This document shows positions 1,339 to 56,244 of a stretch of DNA of 64,000 nucleotides, piece by piece. How positions within the stretch are numbered: the stretch's first letter is position 1; the number at the start of each line of letters is the position of its first letter. The stretch lies in assembly GCA_041751215.1 (NCBI GenBank), contig JBGSXW010000002.1, positions 157,287 to 221,286 on the forward strand. The letters run 5' to 3'. The position numbers and the translations under genes were made by a program. Source of the stretch: Candidatus Saccharimonadales bacterium (GTDB lineage: Bacteria; Patescibacteriota; Saccharimonadia; Saccharimonadales; JBGSXW01). Under the pieces are notes generated by a model. The model did not search any database. It was not told where the DNA came from and saw only the letters and a program-made list of their open reading frames with translations.

Positions 1339-3933
1339 ATGCTTTTATCAATGAAAGCAAACCATGAGACGGCTTCAACCCCAATGAAAAGTGTTCGCCG
1401 CTTGGCTAAAGAATATCGGCCAAAAAAGTACCAGCTCAATCTTTCGCTTTATCCTGACGAAATGAACTTTGCCGGAACCGTAAAAATCGAAGGCCATCTT
1501 GAAGACGCCAGGAGTGATATAACCCTCCACAGCAAGGACCTGAAAATTGTCTCAGTGAGCATTAACGGCAAAGACGCCAAGTTTAAACTAGATCCAGGCA
1601 ATGATCAGTTGATAGTTTTAAGCAACAAGCTGCTCAATGCTGGAAGTCAGCTGGTAGAGATAAAGTTTTCCGGAACAATCACCGATCCTATGAATGGGAT
1701 TTACCCGTGTCGTTTTAATTATCAGGGCCAGGCCCAGAAGCTGCTTGGCACTCAGTTTGAGTCACACCACGCCCGCGAAGCTTTTCCGTGTATTGATGAG
1801 CCGGCCGCTAAAGCAGTATTTGAGCTGACACTCAACACTCCTGCTGGCGAAACAGTCGTCGCCAACACTCCTATTAAGTCGCAGTCAACTAAGGACAAAC
1901 GACAAGTAACCGAGTTTGAACCCACACCAATTATGTCCAGCTACCTACTGGCATTTGTGGTTGGCAATGTTAAGTACCTAGAAGCAAAAACCAAGCGCGG
2001 AACCCTGGTTAGGACTTATGCGACCCCTGATAACTATAAGTTCACACAGTTCTCGCTAGACATGGCAGTTAAAACCCTAGAGTTCTTTGAAGATTACTTT
2101 AAGATTCCTTACCCACTAGCCAAGTGTGACTTTGTCGCACTGCCAGACTTTGCCGCCGGGGCAATGGAAAACTGGGGATGCATTACTTTCCGCGAAGCCG
2201 ATCTGTTAGTCGACCCAGAAAACACTAGCTTGCCACAAAAGGAACGAGTCGCGGTAGTAGTCGCCCACGAACTGGCTCATCAATGGTTTGGAAACTTGGT
2301 GACCATGGATTGGTGGAGTGACTTGTGGCTAAACGAAGGCTTTGCCAGCTGGATAGAATACCTCGCTGTTGACCATGAATTTCCGGAATGGAACATGTGG
2401 GCTCAGTTTGTAACAGAGGATCTTATTCGCGGCCAATCACTTGATGCCTTAGCTAATACCCACCCGGTTGAGGTTGAAATTCCCCACCCAGATGAAATCC
2501 GAAACATCTTTGATGCCATCAGCTACAGCAAGGGCGCAAGTGTTATTAGAATGCTTCATGCCTATTTAGGGCCAAAAGACTTTCAGCGCGGGCTACAAAC
2601 CTACCTTAATCGCTACAAGTACGCCAACGCCTCTACGGATGATTTATGGGCAACACTTGAAGAGGTCTCAAAGAAACCAGTTAGCGAGTTTATGTCGGCT
2701 TGGACAAAACAAGCTGGGTTTCCAGTTGTGCATGCTTCGCGCCGCAGCGATACCATAGACCTTAAACAAGAACGATTTTTCTTTAGCACTAGAGAACGCA
2801 AAAGCATGCAGGATAAAACGCTTTGGCCTGTCGCTATTAATGCAACAGACCGGGCCGATAACTTTACGCTCACCAAAGCCCACGATCGCTGGAAAATCGG
2901 TGATACTAACGCGGTTAAGTTAAACCGCGACCAAACTGGATTTTACATGGTTCGGTACGATGAATCTTGGCTTGATGAGCTGTCCGCAGGTATTAAAGCC
3001 GGTAGCCTTTCCGAAATAGATAGACTTGGTTTGTTAAGCGAAGCCTTTACGCTGGCAAAGGCCGGATATCTGCCGACGGTTTCGGCACTAAACCTGCTTG
3101 GATCTTTCACCCAAGAGTCATCCCTGCCAGTTTGGGAGATCATACTTGGTCAGCTCGGAAGCGTCCGACGTGTCATGGAAGACGATAAACTTAGAGAACT
3201 AATCAAACCTTATGTTGGTGAATTGGTTGCTAAGCAGCACGACCGTCTTGGCTGGAAAGAAAGCGACAGTGATAGTCACCAAGATAAAATTTTGCGACCA
3301 ATTATGTTAGGTCAGGCCAGTTTTGCTCAGAATCCTGATGTTGTAAAAGAATGTCTAGCGCGCTTTGACAAAATGAAGCAGCCCAGCGACGAGAACCCAG
3401 ACATTCGGCCTGTTGTTTATGGCACGGCTGCGCGCGAAGGTGACAGCAAAACCTACGACAAACTCTTTGAGTTTTATACTAAGAGCGACTCAGCACAGGA
3501 AAAGGGCATCTTAACCGGAGCACTTACTGGGTTTAAACAGCCTGAACTCGTCAAACGAGCCCTCGATACTATTAGGACTGATGAAGTTAGGCTGCAGGAT
3601 GTGCTGTATTGGACAGGCGGATTGTTTGCGAACCGACATGGCAAAAAGCAGGCCTGGGACTGGATGACAGACAATTGGGACTGGATAGAAGAAAAGTTTG
3701 GCAACGATATAATGATGATGACCGGATTCCCATTGCAAAGTGCGCGAGCGTTTACGAGTGAGGCCGACGCAAAACGATACGAAAAGTTCTTCTCAAAAGT
3801 TAACAAGGGCGGATTGGACCGACCAATCAAACAGGGTTTAGAGACAATACTCTGGCAAAGTGACTGGAAAAAGCGAGACGCGGCCGCAATTAATCAATTC
3901 TTTTCGAACTGGAAGCCTAAAGACTCTCAATAA
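1339..3933 (+). CDS. pepN: Aminopeptidase N (M1 family zinc metallopeptidase). The exact start is uncertain; alternative Met codons lie at 1351 and 1384.
   Basis: It has the GAMENWG exopeptidase motif and the HELAHQWFGNLVTMDWWSDLWLNEGFA HEXXH-(18)-E zinc site. At 864 aa it is typical of PepN. Confidence 0.9.
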   Translation: MLLSMKANHETASTPMKSVRRLAKEYRPKKYQLNLSLYPDEMNFAGTVKIEGHLEDARSDITLHSKDLKIVSVSINGKDAKFKLDPGNDQLIVLSNKLLNAGSQLVEIKFSGTITDPMNGIYPCRFNYQGQAQKLLGTQFESHHAREAFPCIDEPAAKAVFELTLNTPAGETVVANTPIKSQSTKDKRQVTEFEPTPIMSSYLLAFVVGNVKYLEAKTKRGTLVRTYATPDNYKFTQFSLDMAVKTLEFFEDYFKIPYPLAKCDFVALPDFAAGAMENWGCITFREADLLVDPENTSLPQKERVAVVVAHELAHQWFGNLVTMDWWSDLWLNEGFASWIEYLAVDHEFPEWNMWAQFVTEDLIRGQSLDALANTHPVEVEIPHPDEIRNIFDAISYSKGASVIRMLHAYLGPKDFQRGLQTYLNRYKYANASTDDLWATLEEVSKKPVSEFMSAWTKQAGFPVVHASRRSDTIDLKQERFFFSTRERKSMQDKTLWPVAINATDRADNFTLTKAHDRWKIGDTNAVKLNRDQTGFYMVRYDESWLDELSAGIKAGSLSEIDRLGLLSEAFTLAKAGYLPTVSALNLLGSFTQESSLPVWEIILGQLGSVRRVMEDDKLRELIKPYVGELVAKQHDRLGWKESDSDSHQDKILRPIMLGQASFAQNPDVVKECLARFDKMKQPSDENPDIRPVVYGTAAREGDSKTYDKLFEFYTKSDSAQEKGILTGALTGFKQPELVKRALDTIRTDEVRLQDVLYWTGGLFANRHGKKQAWDWMTDNWDWIEEKFGNDIMMMTGFPLQSARAFTSEADAKRYEKFFSKVNKGGLDRPIKQGLETILWQSDWKKRDAAAINQFFSNWKPKDSQ

Positions 3934-43265: not shown

Positions 43266-44333
43266 TTATTCGTCTGAGTTTGGTTTTTCAAACAGCGGTG
43301 GGTCAAGCACAGTTTCGCCGCCGCCAATTCTTACGATGTCTTTATCGATCTTACCTAGTTCCTTGCTGGCGCTGTTGTAATGACCAACGGTGGTACCAAG
43401 CGAATTCCCCACCTTTGTGAAGTAGGCCGAGTAAGCAATCAAGTGTTTTTGCAGTTGTTCGATGTTCTTGCGTATTACTTCGGTATCTTTTTGAATCTCC
43501 ATGCTTTTTAAGCCCTGAGAAATAATCTGCAACATGGCCGAGAGTGTACTTGGACCAACGATGGTTACTCGTTTATCAACGGCCGCGTATTGCATAAGGT
43601 CGCGTCCGTTTACGCCGCTATCCCCGACTTTGTTGGCCAGCAAGTCATAGTAGATAGCTTCGCTCGGAATAAACATTAGTGCTTGGTCGAGTGTGCCTTT
43701 CTTGGGCTGAATGTACTTAGAGGTTTCGTCGATGCGCCGTTTTAGGTCTTCTTTGAAGGTCTTCTCGAGCTGCGGTCGTTGATCGGACTTTGCTTCTACT
43801 AATCGGTTGTAGTTTTCTAGGCTAAACTTGGAGTCGATTGGCAGAATCTTGTCATCGAGCAAAATTGCCGCATCAACTACTAGCCCTTCGCCGAGTTTGT
43901 GTTGAAGTTTAAACGAGCCGGGTGGCAAAACGTTTTCTAGAATTTGCTTAAGATAAAACTCGCCTAGAACTCCACGCTGCTTGGGGTTTTGGAGCACGTT
44001 TTGGAGGCTTTTAAGCTCACCGGCAATATCACCAACTTGTTGGTTGGTTTTATCTAGCTCGGCCAGCTTAGTTGTAACCTCTCTAATAATCTTTGCGCTG
44101 GCTTGATACTGACGCGCCATCTGTTCGTTGCTCTTATCGAGCCTGTCGGTTAGATGGTCTTTCAGGTGGTCGCTCAGACGTGCAACGTCATCGCTAACCT
44201 TGGTAATGTCTTGCTTAATTAATCCGGCGGCGGACTCGTCTTTAAGCTCACGAAGTTTTTGGCTTAGGTAGTAAATAACTGCGCCAAACCCTAACACCAT
44301 AACTACGAGAATTCCCACGCTAAATGAATCCAT
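43266..44333 (-). CDS. rmuC: DNA recombination protein RmuC
   Basis: It has an N-terminal TM helix, a long coiled-coil and a C-terminal RmuC nuclease-like domain (MFIPSEAIYYDL). Confidence 0.8.
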   Translation of the reverse strand: MDSFSVGILVVMVLGFGAVIYYLSQKLRELKDESAAGLIKQDITKVSDDVARLSDHLKDHLTDRLDKSNEQMARQYQASAKIIREVTTKLAELDKTNQQVGDIAGELKSLQNVLQNPKQRGVLGEFYLKQILENVLPPGSFKLQHKLGEGLVVDAAILLDDKILPIDSKFSLENYNRLVEAKSDQRPQLEKTFKEDLKRRIDETSKYIQPKKGTLDQALMFIPSEAIYYDLLANKVGDSGVNGRDLMQYAAVDKRVTIVGPSTLSAMLQIISQGLKSMEIQKDTEVIRKNIEQLQKHLIAYSAYFTKVGNSLGTTVGHYNSASKELGKIDKDIVRIGGGETVLDPPLFEKPNSDE

Positions 44334-44338
44334 GAGGG

Positions 44339-44779
44339 TTACTTCTTCCTTTTCTCTAAGCGTTGAAGTGGAGTATCGTTTTGGATTTTGCTCTGAGCCT
44401 CGTACATTCTGGTCTCTACGTAACGAGCAAACTGCAGGGTTCGTTGCTTGCGAATACGCTTGAATTTAAAGTTCTTAGCCCTTGTAAAGATTGTGACTCT
44501 ACCCCAAATCATACTGACGTCAAACTCAACTGCTGCAATCATGCTGTAAGGAATGTCATCCACTAGCAAATCAAAAAACTTTTTATCGACAAACAGTAGG
44601 CGTCGATCGGTAGCAAGTAACATCCCAAAACCGCCGGCATAGGTACCGGCAATAAACTCTTTGATAACTTCATCGCGCATCAAGATATCGGGCAAGTGTC
44701 TGATCTCGGCCTTTTGCATGATGGCCGGAGAAGCGCCGAGGTTCCTAAGCTGTAGTCTCACTGATTCTTGGGTTGCCAT
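44339..44779 (-). CDS. Bacterial PH-domain (bPH_2/DUF304-like) protein
   Basis: It is 146 aa. The pattern RRLLFVDKKFFDLLVDDIPYSMIAAVEF is typical of YdbT-like bPH domains. Confidence 0.55.
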   Translation of the reverse strand: MATQESVRLQLRNLGASPAIMQKAEIRHLPDILMRDEVIKEFIAGTYAGGFGMLLATDRRLLFVDKKFFDLLVDDIPYSMIAAVEFDVSMIWGRVTIFTRAKNFKFKRIRKQRTLQFARYVETRMYEAQSKIQNDTPLQRLEKRKK

Positions 44780-44847
44780 GGCTTACTTTCACCTATACTT
44801 TGTTATGCTTTATATTAGCATAGCAACCGATCTTAAAGGGGGAGCCG

Positions 44848-45300
44848 ATGAACGACGACGCACAAACAAGAGCCTACGCATTCTTAAAAGAACACGACCT
44901 AGCGGTCATCGCCACCGTCTCGGAAAAGGGCGATCCTTTAGCCTCGGCCGTTTATTACTGGCTGGACGAGGACTACTCGTTTTACTTTTTAACCAAGTCT
45001 AAGACTCGTAAGTTCCAAAATATTGAAGACACCGGCAAACTCGCCGTTGTTGTATCCGATGAAGCCAAACTAACTACCGTTCAGGGTGAGGGCAAGGCAG
45101 AAGTCGTTAAAGACCCCTCCACTCAAGCTGAGATCATGAACCACCTAGCAACGATTAAAAGCACGCAAGATAAGGCTTGGTTCCCGCCGATTGCTCAGAT
45201 CGAAGCCGGTAGTTTTGTAGTGGTTAAATGCAAAGTCGACCACCTGCAGCTCAGCGAGTTTAATCATGGCAAGCCTAGCGTTAACGAGGTTGTTTCTTAG
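44848..45300 (+). CDS. Pyridoxamine 5'-phosphate oxidase-like FMN-binding split-barrel protein
   Basis: It is 150 aa with AFLKEHDLAVIATVSEKGDPLASAVYY, the PNPOx-like fold signature. Confidence 0.65.
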   Translation: MNDDAQTRAYAFLKEHDLAVIATVSEKGDPLASAVYYWLDEDYSFYFLTKSKTRKFQNIEDTGKLAVVVSDEAKLTTVQGEGKAEVVKDPSTQAEIMNHLATIKSTQDKAWFPPIAQIEAGSFVVVKCKVDHLQLSEFNHGKPSVNEVVS

Positions 45301-45913
45301 CTAGATCAAGTAGTTGGGTTGGCTTCTCTATTACTGTGTCTGGGTTGCTGCGCGACAGTAGTGCCACGTTGTTAAGTCCCCAGGTAACGGAGGCAACCTT
45401 TAGGCCAGCAGCATGGGCGGCTTCAATGTCGCGGACTTCGTCGCCTACATAAATTGTCTGCTCGCGGTCTAGTTTGTGCTTACGGACGCTCGACTTAAGA
45501 CGCCGACTTTTACCAAAGATCCCAGCACCAGTGTCGACAAACTCAAAAGCATCTTCTAGTTTATGTGCTTGCAAAAAGGTCATCACGCTCTCGCGCGAGC
45601 TAGAGGACACAATTCCCAGGGGAATGTCTTGTTTGTGCAGAGTTTTTATAACATCTACCATGCCTGGAATCGGTTTTACGTGTTTAGCACGCTTGGTTAA
45701 ACGACCGCGGCCTTTAATTGCTAGCTGCGGCAAAAGCCTCGTGGGGACATTTACGTACTTAACCATCTCCGGAATTGTCATGCCCTGAAGTTTTTTTACG
45801 TCTTTTTCGGTAAGGGTTGGCAGTCCTAGCTCGCTCAAGAGCTCGTTGCCAATCTCAACAACCAAATCCAACGTGTCGGCGATAGTTCCGTCAAAATCAA
45901 AAATATAAGTCAT
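45281..45913 (-). CDS. HAD-superfamily hydrolase (phosphoglycolate phosphatase-like)
   Basis: It has MTYIFDFDGTIADT (motif I DxDGT), motif II S/T and C-terminal GDxxxD. Confidence 0.8.
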   Translation of the reverse strand: MTYIFDFDGTIADTLDLVVEIGNELLSELGLPTLTEKDVKKLQGMTIPEMVKYVNVPTRLLPQLAIKGRGRLTKRAKHVKPIPGMVDVIKTLHKQDIPLGIVSSSSRESVMTFLQAHKLEDAFEFVDTGAGIFGKSRRLKSSVRKHKLDREQTIYVGDEVRDIEAAHAAGLKVASVTWGLNNVALLSRSNPDTVIEKPTQLLDLAKKQPR

Positions 45914-46027
45914 CTATACCTCTATAGTACACAATGCCCTACTAGATAACCAAGTATCGAAATGCCCAATTATTGGCAGCCTCTGCGCGCATTAGTTTAA
46001 GCATCTGCGTTATAATGGAGTTTAAGT

Positions 46028-46657
46028 ATGATTGAGCAAACACGTAACACGGTTCGGCGCGGCATGCATCAAATTGCAAAGCTGCTTAACTCATTGACTG
46101 GCGGGCGCCTGCATCCTAACACCGTGACCATCACTGGTTTGTTGCTGCATTTTGTGGTGGCCTGGGCAATCGTTAACGGCGACTACGTTTTAGCGGGCTT
46201 GATGCTGGCAGTTTTTGGGTTGCTGGATGCGCTAGACGGCGAGCTGGCGCGGCTGCAAAACCGAGCAAATCCTGGTGGAATGCTGCTCGATGCTACAACC
46301 GACCGCGCCAAAGAAATCATCATTTACGCCGCTCTGGCCTATGTCTTAGTCGACGCCGAGGGAGCAATCGGAGCAGTTTGGGCCATCATGGCGCTGGGTG
46401 GCTCTTTCCTGGTTAGCTACTCTAAGGCTAAAGGCGAGACTGCGCTCTCCGGAGAATCTGGAAGATCCAAGCTAAGCCCCAACGAGGCTAATCGCGTATT
46501 CCAAGATGGCCTAATGCGGTTCGAGGTTAGGATGCTGGTCTTAGTTGTTGGCCTGCTCAGCGGATTCTTGCTAGAGGCTACCATGGTTGTTGCAATCCTT
46601 AGCTGGCCGACTGCGGTTTGGCGAGTCGCCACCATAAGCGCTAAACTATCATCATGA
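46028..46657 (+). CDS. CDP-alcohol phosphatidyltransferase family membrane protein
   Basis: It has DALDGELARL... G... D... D, the CDP-OH_P_transferase signature. It is 209 aa with multiple TM helices. Confidence 0.75.
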   Translation: MIEQTRNTVRRGMHQIAKLLNSLTGGRLHPNTVTITGLLLHFVVAWAIVNGDYVLAGLMLAVFGLLDALDGELARLQNRANPGGMLLDATTDRAKEIIIYAALAYVLVDAEGAIGAVWAIMALGGSFLVSYSKAKGETALSGESGRSKLSPNEANRVFQDGLMRFEVRMLVLVVGLLSGFLLEATMVVAILSWPTAVWRVATISAKLSS

Positions 46658-47361
46658 TCAAGATCGATCTGCATGTGCACAGTATTGCGTCTAAAGACGG
46701 TTCGCTAACTGAGCCGCACTTTCGACGCTTTTTTGATCAACGCCTACTCGACGTTATTGCTATTACTGATCACAACCGAATCGATTATGCCCAGCGCATG
46801 GCCGCTATTTTTGGGCAACACATTATTGTTGGCGAGGAAATCCAGACCTCCGAGGGCGAGATTATCGGCCTTTACCTGCGCGAAGCTATAGCACCAGGGC
46901 AAGACTTAAAGTCCACAATTGCAGCCATCAAGCAGCAAGGTGGCATTGTCTATGTGCCACATCCGTTTGTGGGGCGACGTCACAGCTTAAACCGCGCCAG
47001 CATCGAAGCCAACTTGAGCGATATCGACATCATAGAGGTTCACAACGGCCGCAGCATCAATAAATTGCCGAGCGAGGCCGTTGAGCTGGCCGGTACTTAC
47101 GAAAAAGCCGAGTCAGCCAGTAGCGACGCTCACAATCTTAGCGGCCTGGGTTTAACCTATAACCGCGCTAGTGACTGGCCCAACCCGCAAACGTTAGTTA
47201 GCATTATCGACCAAGCTCACTTTGAGTACGCCAAGCCACCGCTTAAAGCAGTCTTAGGTCCAAAATATAACCGCGTTATGCATGCCTTAGGTTTGCAAAA
47301 AGTTTCTGCCGATCCTGCTAATCCTTCCGATCAGAATCCACCGGAGGCGCCGAGTGCATGA
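46654..47361 (+). CDS. PHP-domain metal-dependent phosphoesterase
   Basis: MIKIDLHVHSIASKDGS is PHP motif I. There are further His/Asp motifs (VPHPF; EVHNGR). Its start overlaps the upstream stop by 4 nt. Confidence 0.75.
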   Translation: MIKIDLHVHSIASKDGSLTEPHFRRFFDQRLLDVIAITDHNRIDYAQRMAAIFGQHIIVGEEIQTSEGEIIGLYLREAIAPGQDLKSTIAAIKQQGGIVYVPHPFVGRRHSLNRASIEANLSDIDIIEVHNGRSINKLPSEAVELAGTYEKAESASSDAHNLSGLGLTYNRASDWPNPQTLVSIIDQAHFEYAKPPLKAVLGPKYNRVMHALGLQKVSADPANPSDQNPPEAPSA

Positions 47362-47896
47362 TCTACTAGGAGCCGTGTGGTTTTTTTTGCCAGCCATTGT
47401 AGCTAACATGGTGCCGGTTTTAAGCAACGCAGTTCCGGGAATCAAAGACTGGGACGCACCGATGGATTTTGGCAAAAAGTGGCATGGGCAGCGCATTCTT
47501 GGCAACAACAAGCGTTGGCGAGGCTTGCTAACTGGAGTTTTTGCGGCCGCTCTTACCGGCGTCTTGCAACTGTGGCTGTATCAAGAATCGGGCTTTGTTA
47601 GGGATTTTGCATTCTTAGACTACAACACCATCAATGTTGTAGCGCTGGGGATCTTGCTCGGTTTTGGTGCCTTAATTGGTGATGCAGCCGAGAGCTTCTT
47701 TAAGCGCCAGCGCGGCATCAAATCCGGCGAAGCCTGGATGCCATTTGATCAAATCGATTGGATAATCGGCGGCCTGTTGTTTAGCTTGCTGATGGTTTCT
47801 TTAAGCCTCTGGCAATATCTACTGGTGTTCCTCCTCGCCTTTTTGATTCACCCAGTCGGTAGCTTTATTGGGCATTCGTTGAAGCTCAAGGATTAG
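47354..47896 (+). CDS. CarS-family (CDP-archaeol synthase-like, DUF46) CTP:lipid/alcohol cytidylyltransferase
   Basis: It has DFGKKWHGQRILGNNKRWRG and IGDAAESFFKRQRG. From memory these match the archaeal CarS/CdsA-type signatures. It is 180 aa with about 5 TM helices. Its start overlaps the PHP gene by 8 nt. Confidence 0.7.
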   Translation: MHDLLGAVWFFLPAIVANMVPVLSNAVPGIKDWDAPMDFGKKWHGQRILGNNKRWRGLLTGVFAAALTGVLQLWLYQESGFVRDFAFLDYNTINVVALGILLGFGALIGDAAESFFKRQRGIKSGEAWMPFDQIDWIIGGLLFSLLMVSLSLWQYLLVFLLAFLIHPVGSFIGHSLKLKD

Positions 47897-47925
47897 TGCC
47901 CTGAACAGGGCCGCAAAAGGCTCAA

Positions 47926-48450
47926 CTAGCCTGTGCGTGCCAGTATCTCATCCACGACTTGATCTAGTGATTGAGTGGCATCAATAACTGTTGCGCCAAA
48001 TGACGTAAACTCGTTTTCCTTACTACGATTCTCCGCAATGATCTTTGCTAGCTCATGGGGCTTGGTGCCGTAGCTATGATCCCGAGGATTTGTAACTCGT
48101 TCTTTTATCGTTTTTTCGTCTGTCTTGAGCCAGATAACTTTGTCGCACAGTTGAGCTATTTCTAGCTCGTTGCTACCGCCACCACATAAGTACATTTGCT
48201 GTTTTTGTGATTGGCTTTGTAGCTTTTTGATCCACTCTTTATCTATAAGCCACTCGTGAGCCTCGAGCCATTCTTTCGTACGCTCTGGAGCTTGTCCAAA
48301 CTCGGCAGCTTTCTCGCCAGTCTGCTTGTTGTAATAGGCTGCATGACCACTGTGTTCTATGTCGACAGCGTCATATCCACGCCTTAAAAGCTCCTTGGCA
48401 ACCGCCGATTTGCCAGAAGTTGATATTCCTGTAATTAAGATTAAGGGCAT
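47926..48450 (-). CDS. P-loop NTPase / small nucleotide-kinase-like protein
   Basis: It has MPLILITGISTSGKSAVAKEL (Walker A), is 174 aa and resembles AAA_33 or shikimate/adenylate-kinase-like proteins. Confidence 0.6.
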   Translation of the reverse strand: MPLILITGISTSGKSAVAKELLRRGYDAVDIEHSGHAAYYNKQTGEKAAEFGQAPERTKEWLEAHEWLIDKEWIKKLQSQSQKQQMYLCGGGSNELEIAQLCDKVIWLKTDEKTIKERVTNPRDHSYGTKPHELAKIIAENRSKENEFTSFGATVIDATQSLDQVVDEILARTG

Positions 48451-48521
48451 GTCGGCAATTATAGACTACCGAGGCTAGCTGCTAACATCAACGTGGAGTA
48501 AAAGGCCCTGTAGTTAACTAA

Positions 48522-49046
48522 ATGTGCGATAATAAGGCCATGATTAAACAACACATACACTTTATAAAAATGGGCGGAACAATTGAGTTTTTTGATCCAG
48601 CTTACGACGCAATCAATAAACGCCTTATGAAGCTCGACACTACCATCGATAGTTATCTACACAACTTGATACAGCCTCACTTTACTTTCAGTACTGAAAG
48701 CATTACGGAAAAGGACAGCCGAGATATCACTGAAGATGATAGGAACAAACTCCTCAAGGCAATCAGCTCAACAGAACACACCAACATCGTGGTTACGCAC
48801 GGAACATTCACCATGGTAGAGACCGCTAGATTTTTACAGGATCACTCTACTGAGGGTAAGAGGGTTGTCTTAACCGGATCAATGATTCCTATTTCTGGCT
48901 TTTCTACGTCTGACGCAGGCTTTAACCTGGGGTTTGTTATTGGCTCTTTTGCCAATATTCAACCCGGCGTATACCTGTCTATGAACGGCGGAGTATTCAC
49001 ACCAAGTGAAGTCGAGAAAAACACAGACCTTCTGCGATTTGAATAA
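48522..49046 (+). CDS. Asparaginase/glutaminase-family N-terminal domain protein (stand-alone or truncated)
   Basis: It has KMGGTIEF (TGGTIA-like) and VVTHGTFTMVETA (HGTDTM-like), the asparaginase N-domain motifs. It stops at 174 aa, with no C-domain. Confidence 0.55.
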   Translation: MCDNKAMIKQHIHFIKMGGTIEFFDPAYDAINKRLMKLDTTIDSYLHNLIQPHFTFSTESITEKDSRDITEDDRNKLLKAISSTEHTNIVVTHGTFTMVETARFLQDHSTEGKRVVLTGSMIPISGFSTSDAGFNLGFVIGSFANIQPGVYLSMNGGVFTPSEVEKNTDLLRFE

Positions 49047-49051
49047 CCAGA

Positions 49052-49795
49052 TCAAGCTACTTTATCGCGAACAAACTCTTTAACAGCCGACTCATCAGGC
49101 AAGCCAAGAATTCTATCGTCTTGTCTCTCCATGAGCAATGTGCTGATTCCTCGAACTCTGTGCCGGTATGCGGCGGGCGAGGTTTTTTGTAAAAACTTTT
49201 GTTGCAACGTAACTGAACCGGGAACAAGCACACTGTAAACTCCGGCAACGTAGTCTTCAAAACCTTCTAGGCCTTCATAGACTGAGGCAAGATTTCTTGC
49301 GTTGGCGATATTGCGTGCTTGTCGTTGGGGCGCACTACTCTCATCGAGGTCGCGCTTAAAGAATGCGGCCTGGCGAACTAAGCGGCAGCGATCTGCTAGT
49401 AGGCCAACTAGGCGTTGCTCGCGCTCTGGAGTGCAGCGGAAATCGTATCGAACAACTTCTTCAGTCGTAACCATCGCTCGGTGGAGGTCTTCGATCAGAT
49501 CTTCAAAACCATCGAGACCTGGGTTTAAGGGTTCGGCCAATTCTTGAAGTCGATCTATCTGCGCTAGTCGAATGTCGGCGATTCTTACCAACGGTAATTC
49601 GTTCTTTACGTTAACCATTTTAGGAATATCCATAGCGTACCTGTGTTCGGCAAGAACATCTACAAGTTGCGGTTCGATCAGGTCCATTTCGCCGCGAATT
49701 TCATCCAAAGATAAGTATTCTGGAAACTCCAAATGATACATTCGGCAAAAGGGTGCGATTGGGTCTGGCTCGTCAGCTGGATGATACTCGCTCAT
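49052..49795 (-). CDS. Hypothetical protein (247 aa, acidic, no TM helices)
   Basis: It is a long clean ORF with no recognisable motif. Confidence 0.45.
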   Translation of the reverse strand: MSEYHPADEPDPIAPFCRMYHLEFPEYLSLDEIRGEMDLIEPQLVDVLAEHRYAMDIPKMVNVKNELPLVRIADIRLAQIDRLQELAEPLNPGLDGFEDLIEDLHRAMVTTEEVVRYDFRCTPEREQRLVGLLADRCRLVRQAAFFKRDLDESSAPQRQARNIANARNLASVYEGLEGFEDYVAGVYSVLVPGSVTLQQKFLQKTSPAAYRHRVRGISTLLMERQDDRILGLPDESAVKEFVRDKVA

Positions 49796-49824
49796 AAAGC
49801 ATATTATATCATCAAATGCTGGAA

Positions 49825-51045
49825 CTAGGAAGATGTTGCCGGCTGCCTAAATCGCCTGACGCAACCGCATCGAACTAGTAGCCAGTAACTGATGCCTAAT
49901 CCGATCAGCATAAATGATCCCTGCACAAAGTACCCCGGCTGCAAGGATCCACCGGCAACCACAAAACCTAAGAATATCGTCATGATCATTCTGGTGAGCC
50001 TGCTAGCTAGCGACATGCCCGAGAGTACGGTTGCTCTGGTTTTATTGTCTAGCTCCTGATTGGCGTAATCGGAAATTAGTGGTCTTTCTAGGTTGAACAG
50101 CCCGATCGTGCTAATAACTAAAATCACAACCAAACTGTTCTGGGTTGCAAATGCTAGCCCTAAATATCCAGCTATCGAGCCGATTTTAATAATCGCAAAG
50201 GCTTTTTCAAACGTAAAGTAGCGTTCTAAAACGTACACGTGGCGCTGCAGCACAAAGTTAATGAACAACCCTGCGCTAAAGGCTGCTCCGACCCAAAAGT
50301 TATTTACATTCAGGTTTTCGAAGTGCGGACCATAAGTCCCGTACAAGAAGTACTCGTTGCAAATGGTTAGTAGCCCAATCATGGTTAGGGCAAAGATTGT
50401 GGTGTTGTTTTTCATCAGATGGAAGGTTTCTTTGAGCATGCTCCACATCTTTTGTTCTTGCTCTAGAACTGAATCGTTTTCGTATTTATCGCGCTTATCA
50501 AACAGGAACAACGAGTACGTGCTGATTCCAACCTGAAGCACCGCCGTAGCTAAAATAAGCGGCACAAAGCTTGCTGAGTTGTACTCGCCGTAAACTACCG
50601 CCGTTATTAGGCCAGCAACCAGGAGCCCGGCTACGCCGTTAGACAGCACAGCGCTGCTTTGTTTTTTATAGTTTAGTCCCTCGCGCTCAGAGGCTTCAAA
50701 CAACAAGGCTTCGTTTGCTCCGCTCACCAACGAATGGCCAAAACCGCGGATTACGTTCATGAGGTACAGTCCGGCCGTTGTCGGAGAGATTATTAGGGCC
50801 AACAAACCCAGCGCACTAGTAAGGTATCCTAGAGACAAAGAGAGCTTACGACTAAACTTGTCTGCAACCACACCAGTCGGCACCTCAGATAACAGCACGG
50901 TTGCAGAAAATACACTCTGCGCAATGACAACGTTGGTTAAAGACACGCCTTGGGATAAGGCGAAGAGGTTTGTGACAATCGTCGCAAAGTACATGCCATC
51001 GATAAACTCTATTATCTTGAGCTTTTTTACTGTTGAGGATTTCAT
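49825..51045 (-). CDS. MFS transporter
   Basis: It is 406 aa with about 12 TM helices and an MFS-type loop between TM2 and TM3. Confidence 0.75.
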   Translation of the reverse strand: MKSSTVKKLKIIEFIDGMYFATIVTNLFALSQGVSLTNVVIAQSVFSATVLLSEVPTGVVADKFSRKLSLSLGYLTSALGLLALIISPTTAGLYLMNVIRGFGHSLVSGANEALLFEASEREGLNYKKQSSAVLSNGVAGLLVAGLITAVVYGEYNSASFVPLILATAVLQVGISTYSLFLFDKRDKYENDSVLEQEQKMWSMLKETFHLMKNNTTIFALTMIGLLTICNEYFLYGTYGPHFENLNVNNFWVGAAFSAGLFINFVLQRHVYVLERYFTFEKAFAIIKIGSIAGYLGLAFATQNSLVVILVISTIGLFNLERPLISDYANQELDNKTRATVLSGMSLASRLTRMIMTIFLGFVVAGGSLQPGYFVQGSFMLIGLGISYWLLVRCGCVRRFRQPATSS

Positions 51046-51061
51046 TGATATTAGTTTAGCA

Positions 51062-51080
51062 GGTTGGGTTGGTTGGGTGG
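51062..51080. repeat. GGTTGG-type G-tract repeat (G-quadruplex-capable on the + strand; CCAACC repeats in the 5' leader of the MFS gene)
   Basis: The sequence is ggttgggttggttgggtgg, 17-35 nt upstream of the MFS start codon. Confidence 0.8.
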
Positions 51081-51200
51081 CAAGGACTGCGCGGGAAGTT
51101 TGGTATTCGTTGAAGTTGAAAGGTTAGCATAACATTAATACACGCCTACATAGTAGCAATCAGCTTAACTTAGAAATCCTCGCGAAAGTAAATATTGGGC

Positions 51201-52832
51201 TTACCTTTCTTTCATATTGAGTATGATAGCCTGGCCACGAGCCTCTGAACCGCTAGCATTTAACAAGTTTCTCTTACTTAAAACTCTCCTTAACGCCTCT
51301 AAGGCCAGCTCGATCGATCGATTACTGTCGTCGTACACTTTGTTCATAACTACATCCGGCGATCCGTGCACTAGTCGACTGCGTCTATTATAAAGATCTC
51401 GTATTTCTTTTGCTAATTCCTGTCGATTTCTTTCATTACTTGGCTCTATCAATAGGGACATTGCTGCCCGTATACGAAAAGAGGCTTCCTGTTTTGCGCC
51501 GAACATATTTTCCCATACAGTAATAGCATCGATGAATGCGTCGGAATGGTCCATCCTTTCAGTGGCGGCTAAAATTAGTCGCTTCATGCTAACACTTAGG
51601 TTATTTGGTGCTCGTTCAAGGCAGCCGAGCCACATAGCTATGTCTTTTGATTGATCTGGGCTTATGGTCTGCCTGGGATAACGAGTTGACGGCCACCTAT
51701 GTGGGCTCAGCGATGCGCTTCTACCCACGCAAAGAGGGTTTGGTGTGGTTGAAAACACATATCGCGGCGCAACGAACTGCTGCCCCTCGGACACAAGAAT
51801 CATTGCAAGAAGAGTTCTGTCTATACTGTTCTGGAGACTCTGTAGGTTCTTGTCTATCATGGCGTTGCGATCGTCGTCGCCGTATCGAACCGCAAACGGG
51901 TCTTTGCTGTCATTGCCTGTTGTGTTGTAGCTTTTAAGAACGCTGACCTTAGCTTGTAGCTCAATTACCACGCTGATCTCACCAACATCACCCACCAAAC
52001 CATGAAGGTCAACCTGACTGGGTCCCCTTATAGAAACACCGCCTGGTGCTGTTATAGACATAAGGCTAGGATCGAGGTCTACATTACCCAGCCCAACTAT
52101 GGTGCTCAGCTTAACCTCCTGGCCATTGGCTAAGCGTTTGACTTTCCGATAAGTAGCCTGGGCATTATTTGCATACTGCACAGCCTCGTCAATCCTACTA
52201 TTTGGTGCAATTGTAGACGAAAATATGATCGATTCTAACAGCATGCCCAGCGATACGGTGTTAAATAGTCCGTTGGATAGAATGATATTAGTGGAGACCG
52301 ACAGAAGCGAAGCTGGTTGGGATTTATAATACTTATAAGACTGCACGCCAGGAAACAGTTTACGTATAGGATTAGATGCCTTCGTTATTGCCAGACTGAA
52401 CTGTTTATTAAGGGGATGTCCATAGATTAACCCGAAAGATGATGCGTGCGTTCCGTCTCGGCCTTTCTTTACTAGACAGACCGGATACACGTCCCTAGCG
52501 ACAGCCATCAAGCTCTGTTCAGCGCTGTCTTTGACATCTTCAAAACCAGGAACGGAGGCGCCAAGACATCGGTAATGAAAGTAAGTAGCCCAAGAAGTGT
52601 TCAGTTCATCCCTGTAAGAGCACAATACGTGGCCTGTGTTCATCTGTAGGTCAATCCCTTCCTTTCCTCCTAGACTTTTCACCAAAGGCGCTAGCTTAGA
52701 TAGCGCGTCACTCTGTAGAGCGTTTGGGATAAGCCGATCCAATTCCTTTGTATTTACGGCGAGCATGAATGAGAGTAGCTCAACACCGAGGATCTCCTTG
52801 AGCTGCTTGATTAAATCTGTCGTGTTTTGCAC
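51201..52832 (-). CDS. Hypothetical 543-aa protein with a C-terminal HEPN-like helical domain (R-x4-H-G). It is a candidate abortive-infection or RNase effector.
   Basis: It has the C-terminal region ...RLILAATERMDHSDAFIDAITVWENMFGAKQEASFRIRAAMSLLIEPSNERNRQELAKEIRDLYNRRSRLVHGSPD... It sits immediately 3' of tRNA-Gln and has lower GC than its neighbours, about 41-48% in the stretches I sampled. It has no TM helices. Confidence 0.5.
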   Translation of the reverse strand: MQNTTDLIKQLKEILGVELLSFMLAVNTKELDRLIPNALQSDALSKLAPLVKSLGGKEGIDLQMNTGHVLCSYRDELNTSWATYFHYRCLGASVPGFEDVKDSAEQSLMAVARDVYPVCLVKKGRDGTHASSFGLIYGHPLNKQFSLAITKASNPIRKLFPGVQSYKYYKSQPASLLSVSTNIILSNGLFNTVSLGMLLESIIFSSTIAPNSRIDEAVQYANNAQATYRKVKRLANGQEVKLSTIVGLGNVDLDPSLMSITAPGGVSIRGPSQVDLHGLVGDVGEISVVIELQAKVSVLKSYNTTGNDSKDPFAVRYGDDDRNAMIDKNLQSLQNSIDRTLLAMILVSEGQQFVAPRYVFSTTPNPLCVGRSASLSPHRWPSTRYPRQTISPDQSKDIAMWLGCLERAPNNLSVSMKRLILAATERMDHSDAFIDAITVWENMFGAKQEASFRIRAAMSLLIEPSNERNRQELAKEIRDLYNRRSRLVHGSPDVVMNKVYDDSNRSIELALEALRRVLSKRNLLNASGSEARGQAIILNMKER

Positions 52833-52955
52833 TGTTTAGCTCTACATAGTTTCATTGGGTCTAATTATACATGGCAAAACATGTCAGCATACTTTTGAGG
52901 CTTTGCGTAAAGCTTATTTGTTACGGAAAAGAAAGGCTCTCATCCATCCACCAAC

Positions 52956-52997
52956 AAAACATGGGTCTGAAATCCACAATGTGGATGCCAGACCCAT
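52956..52997 (-). terminator. Long, near-perfect hairpin immediately 3' of tRNA-Gln, followed by a T-run on the minus strand
   Basis: It is catgggtctg aa atccaca a tgtggat gc cagacccatg. Uninterrupted 10-bp outer and 7-bp inner stems are separated by a 2-nt internal loop, with a 1-nt apical loop. On the minus strand it is followed by TTTTGTTGG. Confidence 0.55.
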
Positions 52998-53070
52998 GGC
53001 TGGGGCGGAGGGATTCGAACCCCCGATCCTGGGACCAGAACCCAGTGCCTTACCGCTTGGCCACGCCCCA
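52997..53070 (-). tRNA. tRNA-Gln (anticodon CUG) with encoded CCA
   Basis: I folded the cloverleaf by hand. The acceptor is UGGGGCG/CGCCCCA and the D-arm GCCAAGCGGUAAGGC is identical to E. coli tRNA-Gln. The anticodon stem CUGGG/CCCAG carries the loop UUCUGGU. The T-arm is GGGGG-UUCGAAU-CCCUC, the discriminator is G, then CCA. Confidence 0.85.
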
Positions 53071-53131: not shown

Positions 53132-53416
53132 TTGCTAAGCATAAGCCGGAGCCATACAATCAATGCCATGAAGCAAGAACAACTCATTAACTTTGCAGCC
53201 GGACTAGCCTTTGCCAGTTTTGCGATCTTTTTAGCAATGGTGCTCTTTATTAAGCCCGACTTTTTAGAGCCAGTAACTAACTGGATACATAACTTCGGCG
53301 TTATTACTATTGGCTCTATTAGACTCTCGATTGGTGGCACGATTGCCATCATCTTGTTCTTTGGCTTTATGGTTCCTAGCGCCTACGGCATCGGCAAAAA
53401 GAAGCATAAAAAATAG
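53132..53416 (+). CDS. Small hypothetical membrane protein (likely start at the Met near 53165)
   Basis: It has two TM helices (LAFASFAIFLAMVLFI; GGTIAIILFFGFMV) and a basic tail KKKHKK. Confidence 0.4.
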   Translation: MLSISRSHTINAMKQEQLINFAAGLAFASFAIFLAMVLFIKPDFLEPVTNWIHNFGVITIGSIRLSIGGTIAIILFFGFMVPSAYGIGKKKHKK

Positions 53417-55665: not shown

Positions 55666-56244
55666 CTATCCTCCCATACCGTGATGTTTGGCATGAAAGC
55701 TGCCAGCGTCGGAGCTCATGTACTGGATGAAGGCGATGAGCATGCCCATCGCAGCTTCGGCGATGAACACGATGATCAGCTGATCCTGCGGAAGCTGGTC
55801 GTAAACACCAAACATCGACACAGCCACGGACGTACCGGCACCGATCACAGCCGTGAACACAGCACCGATGACTGCAGCAAAGATCAGACTGAAGATGCCC
55901 AGAAAGAACTTCGCAGCCCCACTTCCGGCGTCTTTGTCGGCGAGGAAGGAGGTCGACACCAAGTAGACCAGACCAGCATTGATAGCTCCCGCCATGGTGA
56001 CACCGATGATGCAGGCGATGACCATTGCCTCGACGTTTTCGCTGTCAGCGACCCACACCAACGCCGGCGGTCCTGCGGCGACGAGGCCGATCAGAGCGAA
56101 CCCAGCCCACTCGCTGAGAATCTCGCCGCTGAATGAACGGGCGATGCCGACTGCCATGATGCCGCCACCGAACAAAATCACAAGCCAGAACACATCTGCC
56201 TCCCAGTACTCCAAAGGACAACACAGAATTTCTGCGTTAAGCAT
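55666..56244 (-). CDS. Hypothetical integral membrane protein (Gly/Ala-rich TM helices)
   Basis: It is 192 aa with 4-5 TM helices and small-residue zipper patterns (GxxxG/AxxxA). It ends in HAKHHGMGG. Confidence 0.45.
   Translation of the reverse strand: MLNAEILCCPLEYWEADVFWLVILFGGGIMAVGIARSFSGEILSEWAGFALIGLVAAGPPALVWVADSENVEAMVIACIIGVTMAGAINAGLVYLVSTSFLADKDAGSGAAKFFLGIFSLIFAAVIGAVFTAVIGAGTSVAVSMFGVYDQLPQDQLIIVFIAEAAMGMLIAFIQYMSSDAGSFHAKHHGMGG

Follow-up and report, generated by a model that had tools for sequence, protein, structure and literature searches.

In a stretch of 64,000 nucleotides from contig JBGSXW010000002.1 of a Candidatus Saccharimonadales bacterium (called the window below), we studied a 1.6-kb gene which lies 3´ of tRNA-Gln(CUG) and encodes a protein of 543 amino acids (aa). 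An earlier model-made description based on the letters of the DNA (the sequence-only reading) had presented this gene, with gaps of 164 bp and 155 bp on its two sides, as a candidate single-gene defence effector with a C-terminal HEPN-like motif. The list of open reading frames (ORFs), ARAGORN and Rfam agree on this arrangement (Table 1), the 155-bp gap (51046-51200) separating the gene from the longest downstream ORF, which encodes a transporter of the major facilitator superfamily (MFS). The start site is backed by end-to-end alignment with 9 close and 69 distant homologues, and an identical 543-aa protein is already recorded on an NCBI contig of 419 kb.

Table 1. Positions in the window of the HEPN gene, the parts of its product and the adjoining tRNA gene.
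Feature	Position	Strand	Basis or remark
Gene of 543-aa HEPN-type protein	51201..52832	-	GTG start 52832-52830, stop 51201-51203; ORF list
N-terminal all-helical domain, residues 1-178	52299..52832	-	presumed sensor/regulatory
Middle alpha/beta domain, residues 179-391	51660..52298	-	fold without recognisable relative
C-terminal HEPN domain, residues 392-543	51204..51659	-	helical bundle 392-541 in AlphaFold2 model
Catalytic motif R484-S-R-L-V-H489-G490 (cgc agt cga cta gtg cac gga)	51363..51383	-	invariant residues and helix position
tRNA-Gln(CUG), upstream of HEPN gene, same strand	52997..53070	-	ARAGORN; Rfam RF00005, 61.8 bits
Spacer between tRNA-Gln and HEPN gene, 164 bp	52833..52996	-	terminator-like hairpin and -10-like TATAAT

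Architecture of the protein and conservation of its HEPN domain

An AlphaFold2 model built from a 10-sequence alignment (predicted local distance difference test score, pLDDT, 87.7; predicted template modelling score, pTM, 0.85) divides the protein into a helical part (residues 1-178), an alpha/beta part (180-390) and a helical bundle (392-541). The R-x4-H-G arrangement that the sequence-only reading had pointed out in C-terminal helices is contained in the peptide NRRSRLVHGSPD (residues 482-493), and the surrounding ~150 residues are indeed all-helical in this model. The stretch from R484 to H489 closes core helix 3 (467-488), immediately before the loop to helix 496-519; D435 and E441 are situated in helix 429-444, the core helix preceding the motif helix. 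It is an Rx4-6H motif at such a helix-end position that defines HEPN motifs (PMC3710099), and R484-SRLV-H489 is found there. On the evidence of this confidently modelled bundle, the C-terminal ~150 residues are a HEPN domain, as had been proposed from the motif, and the domain is predicted to cut RNA.

An Rx4-6H string by itself carries little information: we estimate that one or two are expected by chance in 543 aa, and a second one (R371-x6-H378) is present in this protein. R484-x4-H489 stands above chance because it is invariant in 79 of 79 homologues and is placed at the end of a core helix in a HEPN-like bundle. The closest structural matches of the HEPN domain are HEPN toxins of the HepT/MNT type (5YEP, 7AE2, 8XDJ, 1WWP, 1JOG). 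When the whole model was compared with the PDB by Foldseek, no match at E < 0.6 was obtained; for the N-terminal and middle domains no clear structural relatives were found, and these two are best described as a presumed sensor/regulatory module.

Conservation is distributed very unevenly along the protein. In an alignment of 79 sequences (alignment A2), 11 positions are invariant (R418, D435, W440, E441, R470, Y481, R484, S485, H489, G490 and R532), all of them within the last 130 residues, and the HEPN domain holds 20 of the 30 columns conserved at 90% or more. Distant members share with the query a mean identity of 0.34 in the HEPN domain, 0.21 in the N-terminal domain and 0.19 in the middle domain. 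That HEPN is far more conserved than the other two domains is the pattern expected of a conserved effector joined to a diversifying sensor.

The family is large and has so far escaped naming. A word-indexed search recovered only 9 relatives; an exhaustive profile search of 1.84 billion cluster representatives (50% identity) gave 1,827 representatives at E <= 1e-3, of which 575 reach E <= 1e-30; the 150 best matches are mostly full-length (510-580 aa). Scans of the 543-aa protein against Pfam, NCBIfam and PADLOC yielded nothing at E <= 10, and Pfam and PADLOC scans of 79 diverse homologues yielded no meaningful match. No Pfam, NCBIfam or PADLOC family could be assigned to the presumed HEPN defence protein. 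Nothing was found by HMMER among PDB sequences with the whole-protein profile or the HEPN-domain profile. One member among the 79 weakly matches PADLOC RTasHEPN (E 0.0096), and the family member WP_134573724.1 from Cryobacterium lyxosi is named 'HEPN domain-containing protein' by NCBI. Literature searches retrieved no paper naming this family.

Searched with the HEPN-domain profile, the databases returned six short proteins only, none of which has an informative name or is annotated by Pfam. Proteins P0164-P0168 (135-180 aa, one encoded on a 78.5-kb contig) match the HEPN domain of the family only (E 1e-35 to 1e-52) and may represent HEPN domains that occur by themselves, parts of split genes, or fragments.

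Hosts, neighbours and composition of the family genes

Next, we looked at the distribution of the family. A pattern-based scan of one genome per species (185,579 species) gave 96 confirmed loci, of which 80 are listed. Most of these 80 loci belong to Actinomycetota (Streptomyces, Amycolatopsis, Nocardia, Kutzneria, Micromonospora, Arthrobacter, Mycobacterium) and Solirubrobacterales, with a few from Acidobacteriota, three from metagenome-assembled genomes of Saccharibacteria and one from Pseudoalteromonas. Saccharibacteria are known as epibionts of Actinomycetota.

When the ORFs of 53 loci were compared all against all, no conserved partner gene emerged, the next-largest cluster of neighbours comprising 7 loci, so that the stand-alone organisation supposed from the single gene of the window applies across these loci. 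At the locus of the closest long homologue contig (L001), a 377-aa ORF (2797-3930) ends 1 nt before the start of the homologue. It was considered as an operon partner and dismissed, since neither the window nor the other loci have a counterpart and Pfam gives no match; it could be a partner restricted to this lineage, or a neighbour without any connection.

Base composition sets the family genes apart from their surroundings. In 38 of 40 loci the GC content of the gene is lower than that of DNA more than 3 kb away, with a mean difference of -0.106; in Streptomyces, for example, the gene has 0.54 and its flank 0.73. Throughout the high-GC Actinomycetota (L009-L088), family genes show a GC content of ~0.50-0.60 against 0.65-0.74 in the flanks, and they fail a filter on GC at third codon positions (GC3) that the host genes pass. 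The low GC kept in Actinomycetota suggests either that the genes were transferred recently and repeatedly or that selection opposes GC amelioration.

The two nearest ORFs on each side were inspected at 39 loci, and the values given here are raw counts with no background rate. Matches comprise NUDIX (4), HTH_38 (4), UvrD/GajB (2, E 1.7e-190), the type IV restriction endonuclease Mrr (2), NA-iREase1 (2), phage integrase (2), resolvase (2) and RepSA (1) of pSAM2-type elements (actinomycete integrative and conjugative elements, AICE), while PADLOC proposes PDC-S07 (4), mad8 (3) and PDC-S02 (2) as candidates. At locus L004 (3470-9453) the homologue adjoins a Gabija-like pair, composed of an OLD-like TOPRIM/AAA_21 protein and a UvrD helicase, together with a 411-aa ORF that lacks annotation and what is probably a C-terminal piece of a type I HsdR; the stretch looks like a compact defence island. 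At L006 the adjoining genes code for a methyltransferase, a PIN_3 protein and a DUF4391 protein.

Copies of the gene also reside on two linear megaplasmids of Rhodococcus. The annotated copy is located near IS110, IS630 and HNH genes; the record of the second megaplasmid is unannotated at that site. In five homologue loci, tRNAs of differing identity occur within ~1.2 kb of the gene. A phage origin of the family was considered and is not supported, as 0 of 50,697 phage records and 2 of 2.9 million IMG/VR contigs match. Taken together, these data fit a horizontally mobile stand-alone gene, sometimes located within defence islands. Horizontal acquisition, which the sequence-only reading had claimed for the gene in the window, is thereby supported at the level of the family, by GC values below those of the flanks, by neighbouring defence and mobile-element genes and by the plasmid copies.

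The tRNA-Gln locus in the window

Directly 3´ of tRNA-Gln, an inverted-repeat search detected a hairpin with 19-bp arms at 52960-52998 (region 52945-53003, minus strand). It folds at -31.5 kcal/mol (z = -4.9 against shuffled sequences) and is followed on its 3´ side by the U-rich tail UUUUGUUGG. Judged by these traits, the hairpin looks like an intrinsic terminator dividing tRNA-Gln from the HEPN gene. Since a strong hairpin and a U-rich tract follow tRNA-Gln, the HEPN gene is probably its own transcription unit. Direct reading of the sequence shows a -10-like TATAAT at 52864-52869; a consensus promoter scan called no full promoter in the 164-bp spacer.

The sequence-only reading had regarded the gene as part of an island acquired at tRNA-Gln and had described it as poor in GC (41-48%, against about 52% in gatB). 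This could not be upheld. The gene has a GC content of 0.465 and a GC3 of 0.463, and gatB has a GC content of 0.486. Means for the window, calculated from 57 non-overlapping ORFs, are 0.480 for GC (sd 0.025) and 0.491 for GC3 (sd 0.054), so that the composition of the gene is typical. No integrase or recombinase was detected by Pfam scan in 10 flanking genes, and no direct repeat of the tRNA 3´ end (att-like) occurs in the window between 45 and 56 kb, just as the earlier reading had itself remarked. With composition, integrase and att repeat all negative, and with a hairpin dividing tRNA and gene, a tRNA-Gln genomic island in the window is not supported. Adjacency to a tRNA is in any case weak evidence, because we estimate that ~5-9% of genes neighbour a tRNA in a genome of ~1 Mb. 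A true compositional outlier does exist nearby: a predicted membrane protein of 192 aa (55666-56244, minus strand) has a GC of 0.568, a GC3 of 0.694 and no Pfam match.

Genes flanking the HEPN gene encode the MFS transporter, chorismate-mutase-like (CM_2), asparaginase-like and P-loop kinase-like proteins, CarS-like and CDP-alcohol phosphatidyltransferases, an FecR/fn3 protein and small membrane proteins. The host has no close sequenced relative, GatB and TypA being singletons at 90% identity. Orthologues of the MFS gene with 60-84% identity (L089-L095) are embedded in unrelated neighbourhoods, one of them adjoining genes for a serine recombinase and a relaxase-like protein. In the closest of these contigs (L089-L093) tblastn detected neither a HEPN homologue nor a tRNA; L094 and L095 were judged from gene tables only.

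An exact pattern of this tRNA-Gln gave no match. Its anticodon and T arms are shared by 120 metagenome loci, none of which contains a HEPN homologue or the immediate neighbours found in the window. Seven of the 120 possess an orthologue of the gene at 43266-44333. Where the tRNA position is listed (L101, L119, L126, L139), this orthologue is found 5´ of the tRNA, at a distance of 0.2-6 kb; the gene of the window is found 3´ of it, at 8.7 kb. The ~8.7 kb 3´ of tRNA-Gln (44334-52996) carries HAD, lipid-synthesis, kinase-like, asparaginase-like, CM_2, MFS and HEPN genes. The stretch between the gene at 43266-44333 and tRNA-Gln thus looks variable or rearranged. Since MFS orthologues occur in unrelated contexts and none of the 120 loci sharing the tRNA-Gln arms has the homologue, the region is variable. 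Comparison of tRNA-Gln loci, which the earlier reading had proposed, shows only that the region is not conserved, and a discrete insertion of the gene cannot be demonstrated from it.

Proposed function and relation to other HEPN systems

We consider it rather probable that the protein is a latent HEPN RNase, contained in a single polypeptide and gated by its own N-terminal and middle domains, which makes up a one-gene abortive-infection system. It would be a cytoplasmic sensor-effector of an unnamed HEPN family. RNase activity, dimerisation, trigger, RNA target and anti-phage role are all modelled here on general HEPN biology and on ApeA, DARNA and PrrC. The C-terminal HEPN would be a metal-independent RNase and, as in other HEPN enzymes, dimerisation would create a composite active site to which each subunit contributes R484 and H489. 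The variable N-terminal helical and middle alpha/beta domains would hold the enzyme inactive until an infection-associated cue binds. Cleavage of RNA would then stop translation and abort phage replication, the most likely target being tRNA anticodon loops if the analogy with ApeA, DARNA and PrrC is followed.

Several facts weigh against such a defence role. No defence model (PADLOC 2023) matches the family, defence genes adjoin only a minority of homologue loci and were counted without a background rate, and the neighbours in the window are ordinary metabolic and membrane genes, with no other defence gene, integrase or compositional shift among them.

Known HEPN systems resemble the family to different degrees. 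PrrC and RloC are HEPN-type anticodon nucleases, latent until infection activates them (see also PMC3710099). They differ in having an ABC-ATPase N-terminal domain and in residing usually in restriction-modification operons; neither ATPase motifs nor Pfam matches were found in the 543-aa protein. DARNA is likewise a HEPN defence effector that consists of one protein and cuts tRNA in the anticodon loops, and its activator is single-stranded DNA bound by phage single-stranded DNA-binding protein (10.64898/2026.02.22.705581). Its domain order, however, is opposite, with an N-terminal HEPN (1-159) and a C-terminal helical sensor. Among HEPN proteins of abortive infection (AbiV, AbiA with its C-terminal HEPN, AbiD/F, AbiJ, AbiU2), the N-terminal parts are unrelated to the family, and no Pfam or PADLOC model of these proteins matches any of the 79 members. 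The Pfam part of this negative has limited weight because Pfam misses two real ApeAs (see below).

ApeA deserves closer comparison. Like DARNA, it is a single-protein HEPN tRNase acting by abortive infection; it consists of N, Mid and split-HEPN domains, forms doughnut oligomers (decamer or dodecamer) and is activated by 5´-phosphorylated deoxydinucleotides (10.64898/2026.01.26.701840). Structures of ApeA include PDB 9HXI (Ec2ApeA). Guided by DNA from the preprint supplement, we located Ec1ApeA and Ec2ApeA, as well as a C-terminal part of Ec3ApeA, in complete E. coli genomes. At E <= 0.01, Pfam-A finds neither Ec2ApeA (L218:2605-4356) nor Ec1ApeA (L219:2651-4456). Since it misses these two, Pfam negatives say nothing about ApeA membership, and this test was discarded. 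It also means that Pfam-based screens overlook real ApeAs; the Ec2 type is named 'hypothetical protein' in RefSeq. The Ec2- and Ec3-type genes (L218 and L220, on E. coli chromosomes) lie inside apparent P2-like prophages, between the genes for baseplate assembly protein V and virion morphogenesis, and in E. coli EC416 two ORFs, of 195 and 372 aa, make up the split Ec3 copy.

Could the family be a very divergent branch of ApeA proper, with a ligand pocket between N and HEPN, higher-order oligomers and anticodon cleavage set off when infection yields small nucleotide products? The two share a single gene of ~540-600 aa, occurrence on mobile DNA and one domain plan, with helical N, alpha/beta Mid and C-terminal HEPN (boundaries 1-198, 199-309 and 335-583 in ApeA; 1-178, 179-391 and 392-543 here). 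ApeA homologues, moreover, reach actinomycetes (Thr1ApeA). The catalytic helix aligns as well, including the Tyr three residues before the Arg, the common motif being (I/L)Y-x-x-R-(N/S)-x-x-x-H: in hhalign comparisons, LYxxRSxLVHG of the family is paired with IYRTRNLIVHTG or IYKVRNKITH of ApeA. The score of 25.9 (P 0.003) exceeds those of 150 column shuffles (mean 12.6, sd 2.3, max 19.7) and of the reversed alignment (12.2). The similarity is nevertheless confined to this helix, spanning 39-94 columns around the motif at 7-10% probability, and the N and Mid domains do not align at all. The PADLOC hidden Markov model (HMM) of ApeA (PDLC02157), which detects Ec1ApeA with E = 0 and Ec2ApeA, only ~20% identical, with E = 1.3e-12, matches 0 of 79 family members at E <= 1. 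Between the conserved Trp helix and the catalytic Arg we counted, in the sequences, ~135 residues in Ec2ApeA and ~43 here, where HEPN is compact (~150 aa) and devoid of the large insertions of ApeA; and the family is found mainly in Actinomycetota and Saccharibacteria, ApeA in Proteobacteria. Membership in ApeA proper is thus improbable. Of the suggestion 'possibly ApeA-like' made in the earlier reading, the shared catalytic-helix motif is retained and membership by the ApeA model is not. From these comparisons we conclude that the family probably works like ApeA-type proteins, yet is not ApeA by the available family definition.

Two further explanations dispense with phage defence. The gene might serve mobile DNA as a selfish toxin or an addiction module, in which the N-terminal part serves as a fused, cis-acting antitoxin and the whole stabilises plasmids or integrative elements. 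The structural closeness of HepT/MNT toxins and the presence of the family on megaplasmids and near insertion sequences, integrases, resolvases and an AICE replication gene speak for it. However, HepT toxins are proteins of ~120-140 aa paired with an MNT (nucleotidyltransferase) antitoxin gene, whereas HEPN is here the tail of a 543-aa protein. Neither MNT nor any other antitoxin gene is conserved beside the family gene in the 53 loci, the neighbours in the window are tRNA-Gln and the MFS transporter gene, a fused and non-degradable antitoxin gives no post-segregational killing, and the window offers no mobile element to be stabilised. We regard this explanation, too, as unlikely. Still less credible is a housekeeping or non-catalytic HEPN protein, be it a native RNA-processing enzyme or an adaptor binding nucleotides or other ligands. 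Some HEPN domains are indeed non-catalytic binders (PMC3710099), and in the window neither GC nor GC3 departs from what is usual in the genome, and the neighbours are ordinary. But the occurrence of the family is patchy (96 relatives confirmed in 185,579 species, three Saccharibacteria among the 80 listed loci), the GC of the gene is strongly atypical in most hosts, and the invariant Arg, His and acidic residues would argue for catalysis. The unrelated contexts of the MFS orthologues, whose closest contigs lack a homologue, and the negative result in all 120 loci with the tRNA-Gln arms point in the same direction.

If the latent-RNase reading is true, a sizeable family joins the abortive-infection systems made of one HEPN protein, whose characterised members so far come mostly from Proteobacteria (ApeA, DARNA, PrrC); Pfam, NCBIfam and PADLOC (2023) models leave this family unmatched. 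It would provide a testable new defence gene for Actinomycetota (Streptomyces, Amycolatopsis, Nocardia, Rhodococcus, Mycobacterium) and for the ultra-small Saccharibacteria, with the unmatched N-terminal and middle domains as a candidate new infection sensor. We put forward, more tentatively, the wider idea that these proteins constitute a widespread family of immune sensors, each contained in one protein, which has gone unnamed, counts ~1,800 clusters or more at 50% identity and would be separate from ApeA, from DARNA and from HEPN families of the Abi type. In it, a new sensor fold made of the N-terminal and middle domains may gate a compact HEPN RNase in response to a new infection cue. The practical gain would be modest: the profile of alignment A2 could join defence-finding tools, and R484 and H489 are defined targets for mutants.

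As a minor observation on the other side of tRNA-Gln, a 94-aa ORF with hydrophobic, membrane-like segments (53132-53416, plus strand) is situated between the tRNA and the gene of a 185-aa membrane protein, and overlaps a 93-aa ORF on the opposite strand.

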